A stretch of 61,559 nucleotides of DNA, filler included, from Basidioascus undulatus (Eukaryota): NCBI GenBank assembly GCA_000826855.1. It is 5 parts of 5 records of this genome, joined end to end, with 100 filler letters (N's around TTAATTAATTAA, not from the genome) between each part and the next. Parts side by side here need not be neighbours in the genome. Positions count along the whole stretch, not along the records: positions 53,487 to 61,559 come from JTLS01001444.1; 4 more parts are not named here. One strand, 5' to 3'. Each line of letters opens with the position of its first letter. Positions within the stretch are counted from its first letter, which is position 1. Positions 57,533-58,289 of this stretch are shown here, one piece after another. The translations under genes were made by a program, and so were the position numbers. The notes under the pieces were generated by a model that made no database searches, was not told where the DNA came from, and saw only the letters and a program-made list of their open reading frames with translations.

Positions 57533-58289
57533 CTAGTACTTCCTGGTCTTCTTGTGGCCCGACTTGATGGAGTCATTCTCGAACTCGGAGAGCGTGATGA
57601 AGGCGTCGACCTGGAGGAGGCGAGGAGGCAGGCAGTCAGGTCATGAGCCCAGAGTGCAGTGTACACCGCTGCCACGGCCACTCACAGCTACGTTGTTCTT
57701 CAGGTTGATCGGCTTAGCCTTATTCTTGTCATCGCGGGCCTTGAGGGAGCGCTTGTACTTGTGCCCACTCTTGATCGAGTCGTTCTCGAACTCCGAGAGG
57801 GTGATGAACGCCTCGACCTGTCGAGGGAACCCAGCCGGTCAGCCTTGCCGTCTCCAGTGTTTAAGGAGCAAAAATCATCGCACATCCACTGAGTTTTTCA
57901 AGTTGATGGGCTTGAGATAGGCCGGATGCGGTCAGTGACAGTCTCAGACTTAAGTGAACATTGACCGGTTCAATTACCTTGAAACGGTCCTCCTCGACTT
58001 CCTCCTTCTTCTTGGGGGCCGGCGCCTCGGCCTTGGGGGCCGCACGCTTCTCGAGAGCGCGACGGTCCTTCTTGCCGTGGCCGAAGTGGCCAAAGTTCTC
58101 GTGCTCGAACTCGGAGAGAGTGAACTGGAGGTTGGTGTCGACCGCGTTCTTGATGTTCACGGGCTGTTCCTTCTTCTGGGCGCGGGCCTGGACCGCCGAA
58201 GACGAAGACGGCGGGCCGGAGAGGAGAGGGAAGGCGATGGCGCCGGCGGACAAGGTCAGGACGGTGACGGTGAAGGTGGAGGAGTGCAT
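57533..58289 (-). CDS. Secreted Kex2-processed repeat protein, 3 TLSEFE units; paralog of 17615-19326
   Basis: MHSSTFTVTVLTLSAGAIAFPLLSGPPSSSSAVQARAQKKEQPVNIKNAVDTNLQFTLSEFEHENFGHFGHGKKDRRALEKR...FK|PINLKNSVD|VEAFITLSEFENDSIKSGHKYKRSLKARDDKNKAKPINLKNNVA|VDAFITLSEFENDSIKSGHKKTRKY*. Confidence 0.87.

Follow-up and report, generated by a model that had tools for sequence, protein, structure and literature searches.

The window analysed here is a stretch of 61,559 nucleotides made up of five contigs of the Basidioascus undulatus assembly GCA_000826855.1 (our G000; 32.1 Mb in 2,992 contigs), joined by artificial N/TTAA linkers, with G000:C490 as the first contig and G000:C495 as the last. On the minus strand of the last contig, from the ATG at 58289 to the TAG at 57535–57533, we found a gene of four exons (58289–57533) encoding a 182-residue precursor, with three copies of one 19–22-residue core, one of type A (motif at 58112) and two of type B (57793 and 57586), and with the stop codon 15 residues past the last core. 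The spliced frame was open through all 182 residues, interrupted by three GT-AG introns of 67, 66 and 75 bases, all in phase 0 and each with a branch motif 25–29 bases before its end. Exon 1 (57978..58289, 104 codons) encodes the signal peptide, a Ser-rich pro-segment, the A core, a basic His/Gly tail, an RR and a KR site, and a linker. The predicted signal peptide, residues 1–19 (58233..58289), was read from the sequence as a hydrophobic stretch ending in A-x-A that is kept in paralogs; by eye, no further long hydrophobic run follows in the precursor. Unit A, a core with a His-rich extension (58083..58163), has no interruption, and two predicted KEX2 sites come after it (58044..58064; RR at residues 76–77 and KR at residues 81–82).

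According to the splice model, intron 1 (57911..57977) has an AAG end and a possible in-frame alternative donor 21 bases upstream, so that a few linker residues are uncertain. It is followed by exon 2 (57884..57910), with nine codons forming the first half of core B1, and by intron 2 (57818..57883), placed after core codon 9. Exon 3 (57686..57817, 44 codons) carries the second half of B1, a KR site (57754–57749), a linker and the first half of B2; intron 3 (57611..57685) again comes after core codon 9, and exon 4 (57533..57610) gives the second half of B2 and a short basic end before the TAG, with no tail domain. Just past the stop, at 57476–57524, there are short tandem repeats with units of 18 and 11 bases in about two copies each.

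The first copy of this gene type, at 17614..19326 on the minus strand of G000:C490, has nine exons and encodes 400 residues with two A and three B cores and an acidic and His/Cys/Tyr-Lys-Pro tail. Compared with it, the three-core copy has one unit fewer of each type, A and B, and no tail. All of the shared parts given in the preliminary description, namely the same signal and pro-peptide, one A and two B units, were located on the minus strand, and its remark that the His/Cys tail is missing also held, with the 92-residue tail of the first copy giving no tblastn match on the contig of the three-core copy, while the same query found itself on its own contig. DNA similarity between the two copies was 78% from the promoter through most of exon 1 and 75% across the B region, with none further out in the flanks compared. 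The common proximal promoter and 5′ leader (58290..58459, minus strand) shows blastn similarity from about 170 bases upstream of the ATG, with the upstream regions being 77% identical over 139 bases and TATA-like hexamers standing at −167 and −161 in the two copies, that of the three-core copy about 167 bases before its ATG, near 58450–58456.

Substitutions between the copies had been described as falling at third codon positions with core residues kept, and in the first 69 aligned codons we counted 10, 3 and 23 differences at positions 1, 2 and 3. For these 69 N-terminal codons, the Nei-Gojobori estimates were dN 0.093 and dS 0.64. Pooled over 123 codons, dN/dS between the paralogs was 0.146 (95% bootstrap 0.07–0.27), or 0.172 (0.10–0.30) using position-matched units, which agrees with the purifying selection proposed earlier. 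By part, the ratio was 0.135 in the cores and 0.26 in the signal peptide and pro-segment, with unit A, compared to the first copy's unit 1, at 0.04 and B1 showing the weakest constraint (0.34). The GC3 of the three-core copy was 0.89. Using C301 as the third sequence, with 36 of 67 codons usable, the changes private to the three-core copy were six synonymous and six non-synonymous (pN/pS 0.31, p 0.04), such that constraint on this branch alone is only modestly supported by the sequences; the same test for C301 was not significant, and a very recent loss of function of the three-core copy is conceivable.

Could the three-core copy be a truncated, decaying duplicate, or an allele of the first copy? 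The missing A unit, B unit and tail would fit with that, as would the frameshifted or fragmentary look of the members on C147, C298 and C1733, but we hold it to be very unlikely. A pseudogene would not be expected to keep an open frame through four exons, every splice site and branch motif, a promoter, the GC3 value and the branch pN/pS given above, and C466 carries a second tail-less form ending in B. As for an allele, the flanks are unrelated, the 3.9-kb flank of the three-core copy matches only itself in the assembly (bar 59 bases at the contig end) and dS is about 0.7, and the three-core gene is therefore a paralog of the gene at 17614..19326, not an allele, in line with the argument previously made against two haplotypes of one locus.

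The repeat core follows the pattern P-[IV]-N-[IL]-x-N-x-V-x-[TV]-[DN]-[LAF]-x-[FI]-x-L-[SE]-E-F. By pattern matching, 43 cores were gathered from 21 regions. Positions 2, 4, 8, 10, 12, 14 and 16 were mostly hydrophobic or beta-branched and the odd positions mostly polar, and Asn occupied position 6 in 42 of the 43 cores, where the collecting pattern admitted only N or G. For the three cores of the 57533..58289 gene, the hydrophobic moment at 180 degrees was 2.38, 2.38 and 2.20 (p 0.007, 0.007 and 0.011 versus their own shuffles), and at 100 degrees it was 0.87, 0.08 and 0.56. Family-wide, the periodicity was reached by 3 of 1000 column shuffles, a figure that is partly circular since the collecting pattern favoured hydrophobic even positions, and we rely on the result for the three cores alone. 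An intron follows core codon 9 in 14 of the 43 cores, and intron 3 of the three-core copy aligns with, and is homologous to, the first copy's intron 5 (one of 15 intron pairs, with none of 200 shuffles reaching the score); the introns, which had been said to differ, thus differ in sequence but not in position. Judged from their sequences, A and B are versions of a single homologous core, because they have a common residue frame and the intron after codon 9. A unit tree built on 26 columns was mostly unresolved, with one of 39 branches starred. Both of the peptide subtypes proposed earlier were present, but they are not the only ones, with at least four further variants of the same core in the genome, found in C966, C711 and C2354 (two types alternating), in C2702 and C2933 and in single-core genes.

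We searched the assembly with exon 1 and with other members as queries, the latter giving additional matches. Exon 1 gave 31 matches at E values up to 1, and B-type units gave 11 matches on four contigs. When 26 regions fetched from 25 contigs were scanned with a profile of the core, 23 of the contigs proved to carry cores, C70 and C86 having two genes apiece, while C2521 (with a diverged core and the same signal and tail) and C2868 (with its 5′ end lost at a contig end) were assigned by other parts. The total was 27 places on 25 contigs in 32.1 Mb, a number including several halves at contig ends and three frameshifted- or fragmentary-looking places, and we estimate the actual gene number at about 20–25. 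Searching with a degenerate DNA pattern built on the start of the core gave 30 matches versus one in a reversed control, and since 29 of these lay on contigs already known and the remaining one, on G000:C601, was rejected as having half a motif only (3 bits), the census is nearly saturated where typical cores are concerned. At that position (G000:C601:26500-27300, minus strand) there is a predicted secreted protein in which a charged, coiled-coil-like repeat comes after the half motif.

The number of cores per gene ranged from one to seven, bearing out the variable repeat number of the preliminary description, and the expanded family that it had surmised from two copies among five contigs is real; the co-occurrence itself was luck, however, having a chance of about 0.001 given 27 places in 32.1 Mb. 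TATA-like hexamers were found 115–167 bases upstream in 13 of the 21 members examined, a count made without a control. Several other places deserve mention. G000:C301:1-730, where a contig begins with a 5′ half, and G000:C466:7600-8238, where another ends with a 3′ half, carry A and then B units and are possibly one gene split by the assembly; G000:C2868:12426-12589 and C70:56-250 are near-identical 5′ ends at two contig ends, either a recent duplicate or an assembly overlap; and G000:C2702:4660-5900 and C2933:2590-3500 form a diverged pair, 79% identical in DNA, whose several short cores are split by introns and belong to a different variant. The frameshifted- or fragmentary-looking members (G000:C147:8200-8500, C298:8640-8940 and C1733:1570-1660) are pseudogenes or assembly errors.

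At least five members have a single core followed by a dibasic site, an acidic stretch, a His-His-Gly-Gly-Tyr/Cys box and a Glu/Lys/Tyr/Pro-rich tail of 246–417 residues containing at most one KR/RR, with Tyr-Lys-Pro occurring 12–19 times in four of the five tails examined. Single-core tailed paralogs (G000:C721, C86:1654-3400, C70:56-1900, C2521, C2297, C687 and C907) share a Cys-containing C-terminal box and an extensin-like composition, and Pfam gave no family in the two tailed paralogs tested. Plant extensins and similar proteins are Tyr/Lys/Pro-rich, cross-linked wall proteins. The likeness of some paralogs' tails to them is in composition only, and, unlike extensins, the tails here are Glu-rich and the three-core copy has none. 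These tailed members lend some weight to another view of the core, as a tag for sorting, storage or condensation in the secretory pathway, with the tail of the other members as cargo cross-linked via Tyr or Cys, or of the proteins as a largely uncut wall matrix, and the first core of the three-core gene has no KR/RR upstream of it. We consider this unlikely, since the three-core copy, C966 and C711 consist of cores and linkers only, such that a pure tag would leave them without cargo, and since dibasic sites lie between all cores.

With regards to processing, KR or RR was present in 16 of 16 inter-core linkers of five modelled precursors, whereas shuffled linkers had a mean of 8.4 and none of 2000 shuffles reached 16, and the predicted fragments of these precursors never contained more than one core each. 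Cutting the three-core precursor in silico at KR/RR gave fragments of 77 (with the signal), 5, 54 and 46 residues. Across the family, predicted fragments had 36–84 residues, of which the core makes up 19–22, and the net charge (K+R−D−E) was 0 to +9 in A/B-type genes, with up to seven His in other genes. A KEX2-type gene was found on G000:C2292, typed by its P_proprotein domain (E 2e-16), which is followed by a membrane segment. KEX2 is described as cutting after dibasic sites and KEX1 as trimming the products (PMC9769878). The pipeline for KEX2-processed repeat proteins (KEPs), as outlined by Le Marquer 2019 (PMC6339444), asks for a signal peptide, no membrane segment, at least four KR/RR fragments and three or more similar repeats that together take up at least 15% of the length. 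The three-core precursor gives four such fragments and has three cores, one of them in the C-terminal fragment, that make up 3 × 19 of 182 residues, or 31%. With its predicted signal peptide, three similar repeats, dibasic sites in between and a KEX2-type gene in the genome, its product is very probably a KEP, with the processing being predicted from the sequence. KEPs are an architectural class, not a sequence family. The core here also occurs singly before long tails in genes that would fail the KEP filter. Genome-specific KEP expansions are known, with up to 18.5 KEPs of one type per strain given for Peniophora (Umemura 2020, PMC7329392).

Peptides released in this way might also be signals, alpha-pheromone-like or autocrine, that are read by a receptor. 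The KEP layout would suit such a role, pheromone-like KEPs being among those reported in basidiomycetes (PMC6339444), and an alpha-factor cluster came up in the ESM Atlas at 0.77 (rank 9, below the lead threshold). Alpha-pheromone-like KEPs are short, near-identical peptides after STE13-type XA/XP runs, however, while the predicted products here are 45–58 residues long and non-identical, no such dipeptide run joins a KR/RR site to a core, and more than 20 genes carry several core variants, all of which makes signalling highly improbable in our view. The precursors of dikaritin RiPPs (ustiloxin type) likewise have a signal peptide and KR/RR-delimited repeats. Dikaritin cores are far shorter than the fragments predicted here, though, and the Pfam-named neighbours are housekeeping genes (Urb2 and a TPR protein); UstYa/DUF3328 had no match in G000, a weak result as 14 control genomes were equally silent, and none among the 32 ORFs of the window.

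In the reading that we prefer, and to which we would give a probability of about one half, the KEX2-released one-core peptides would assemble into extracellular beta-sheet material. The precursor would enter the ER through its signal peptide, and KEX2 and KEX1 would yield three peptides of about 45–58 residues with one core each, plus a 5-residue spacer. Each core would be an extended beta strand with one hydrophobic face, broken by the nearly invariant Asn, and the peptides of the three-core gene and its paralogs, perhaps with A and B together as the preliminary description suggested, could then stack into fibrils or films of beta sheet within the cell wall or spore coat or on its surface, like the Rep1 repellents, leaving the Lys/His-rich ends outside the sheet, where they would bind metals or polymers of the wall. 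As the 182-residue copy holds little except cores, its likely product is the core peptides as such.

Rep1 of Ustilago maydis is described as having twelve amphipathic repeats of 34–55 residues that are Kex2-cut into amyloid-forming wall peptides, and one long product (PMC4617103, PMC3133707). As far as those accounts go, Rep1 and Hum3 resemble the present precursors in having imperfect amphipathic repeats of similar length, Kex2 sites and several variants per precursor, and in that some precursors end in a long non-repeat product; the products of about 45–58 residues predicted here are within or close to the Rep1 repeat size of some 34–55 residues. The likeness is one of layout. The present family also differs from Rep1 by its more than 20 genes, basic His/Lys tails, introns inside the core and a hydrophobin-rich genome, with 13 hydrophobin matches over the family cut-off among the 15 listed (C2333, C1579, C543, C2786 and others), so that there is no evident need for a hydrophobin substitute. 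Assembly is also made less probable by the long, variable and highly charged linkers between the cores, and the outward face of the core carries Lys, Asp and Glu, charges that would be expected to disfavour in-register stacking of identical strands.

Soluble linear KEX2 peptides acting in defence or metal handling, with the amphipathic core binding membranes or a target and the His/Lys-rich ends binding Zn or Cu, would account for mostly basic, His-bearing fragments and for the many paralogs with diverged tails, and linear toxic KEP peptides exist, as exemplified by candidalysin (PMC9769878). Conservation in the repeat unit is found in the beta-patterned core and not in the His tail, however, selection is strongly purifying rather than diversifying, and the helical moment is low, such that we find this explanation rather improbable. 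Beta-sheet assembly could also be taken further, to a modular building kit in which more than 20 genes would supply, via KEX2, variant beta-strand cores that co-polymerise in proportions set by the genes (for example the alternating types of C966, C711 and C2354), with fibrils showing His/Lys-rich ends that co-secreted Tyr/Lys/Cys-rich tail proteins cross-link into a resistant wall or spore coat. Such a kit is speculative and, we think, rather doubtful; if true, it would give fungi a functional-amyloid system separate from both hydrophobins and Rep1.

KEPs are common in fungi and mostly without known function. The present family is unusual in its 27 places in one 32-Mb genome and in having one short core common to multi-repeat precursors and to single-core, long-tailed proteins. 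Should the cores form fibrils, fungi would have one more way, besides hydrophobins and Rep1, of making surface amyloid, and the family would offer short peptides that self-assemble; if they form none, the family is a lineage-specific KEP expansion of the ordinary kind. For synthesis and testing, the three-core copy is the simplest choice.

Searches for homologs and structures gave little. No match was returned from protein-database homolog searches, in part of low sensitivity, or from a search of 1.84 billion sequences with a 34-position profile, and Pfam had nothing near the cut-off for a family. These blanks do not show novelty, because the genome's own proteins were not returned either and the lineage seems absent from the libraries. 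The best PDB match, a kinesin stretch at E 0.016, was taken as chance, and all ESM Atlas matches were below 0.9. Metagenome scans gave none of 163 candidates and one of 94 (L065), which was dismissed as fortuitous: the match spans 19 residues on a contig of bacterial appearance, and its frame has neither a signal peptide nor a core. AlphaFold2 predictions of the paralog C966 reached pLDDT 48 alone and pLDDT 59 with pTM 0.13 using a 17-row alignment, with no usable model and no strands called, and a four-copy complex prediction scored 0.05, again giving no model. In the KEP literature consulted we found no description of this core family, with the catalogue supplements of PMC6339444 and PMC7329392 showing no visible sequences and possibly listing members by accession. 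Within the limits of these searches, the layout is known, while neither the core nor the family size nor the coupling of cores to Tyr/Lys-rich tails seems to have been described before.

As for the genomic surroundings, the Pfam-named neighbours on the contigs of the two copies are housekeeping genes, and elsewhere in the window 3 of the 32 ORFs also had families. An Urb2/Npa2 gene (9915-13868, plus strand) lies on the contig of the first copy, and beside the three-core copy there is a TPR/HAT-type gene (53960-55828, plus strand), which we take to be UTP6-like. The gene content is that of a fungus, as seen from a myosin-motor chitin synthase in the window and from the hydrophobin and KEX2-type genes of the assembly, and the short GT-AG introns with the many hydrophobin matches would point to a basidiomycete. 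Elsewhere in the window we noted a chitin synthase with a myosin motor domain (29856-35060, minus strand) and a gene with a beta-lactamase-family (serine hydrolase) domain (40851-41714, plus strand).
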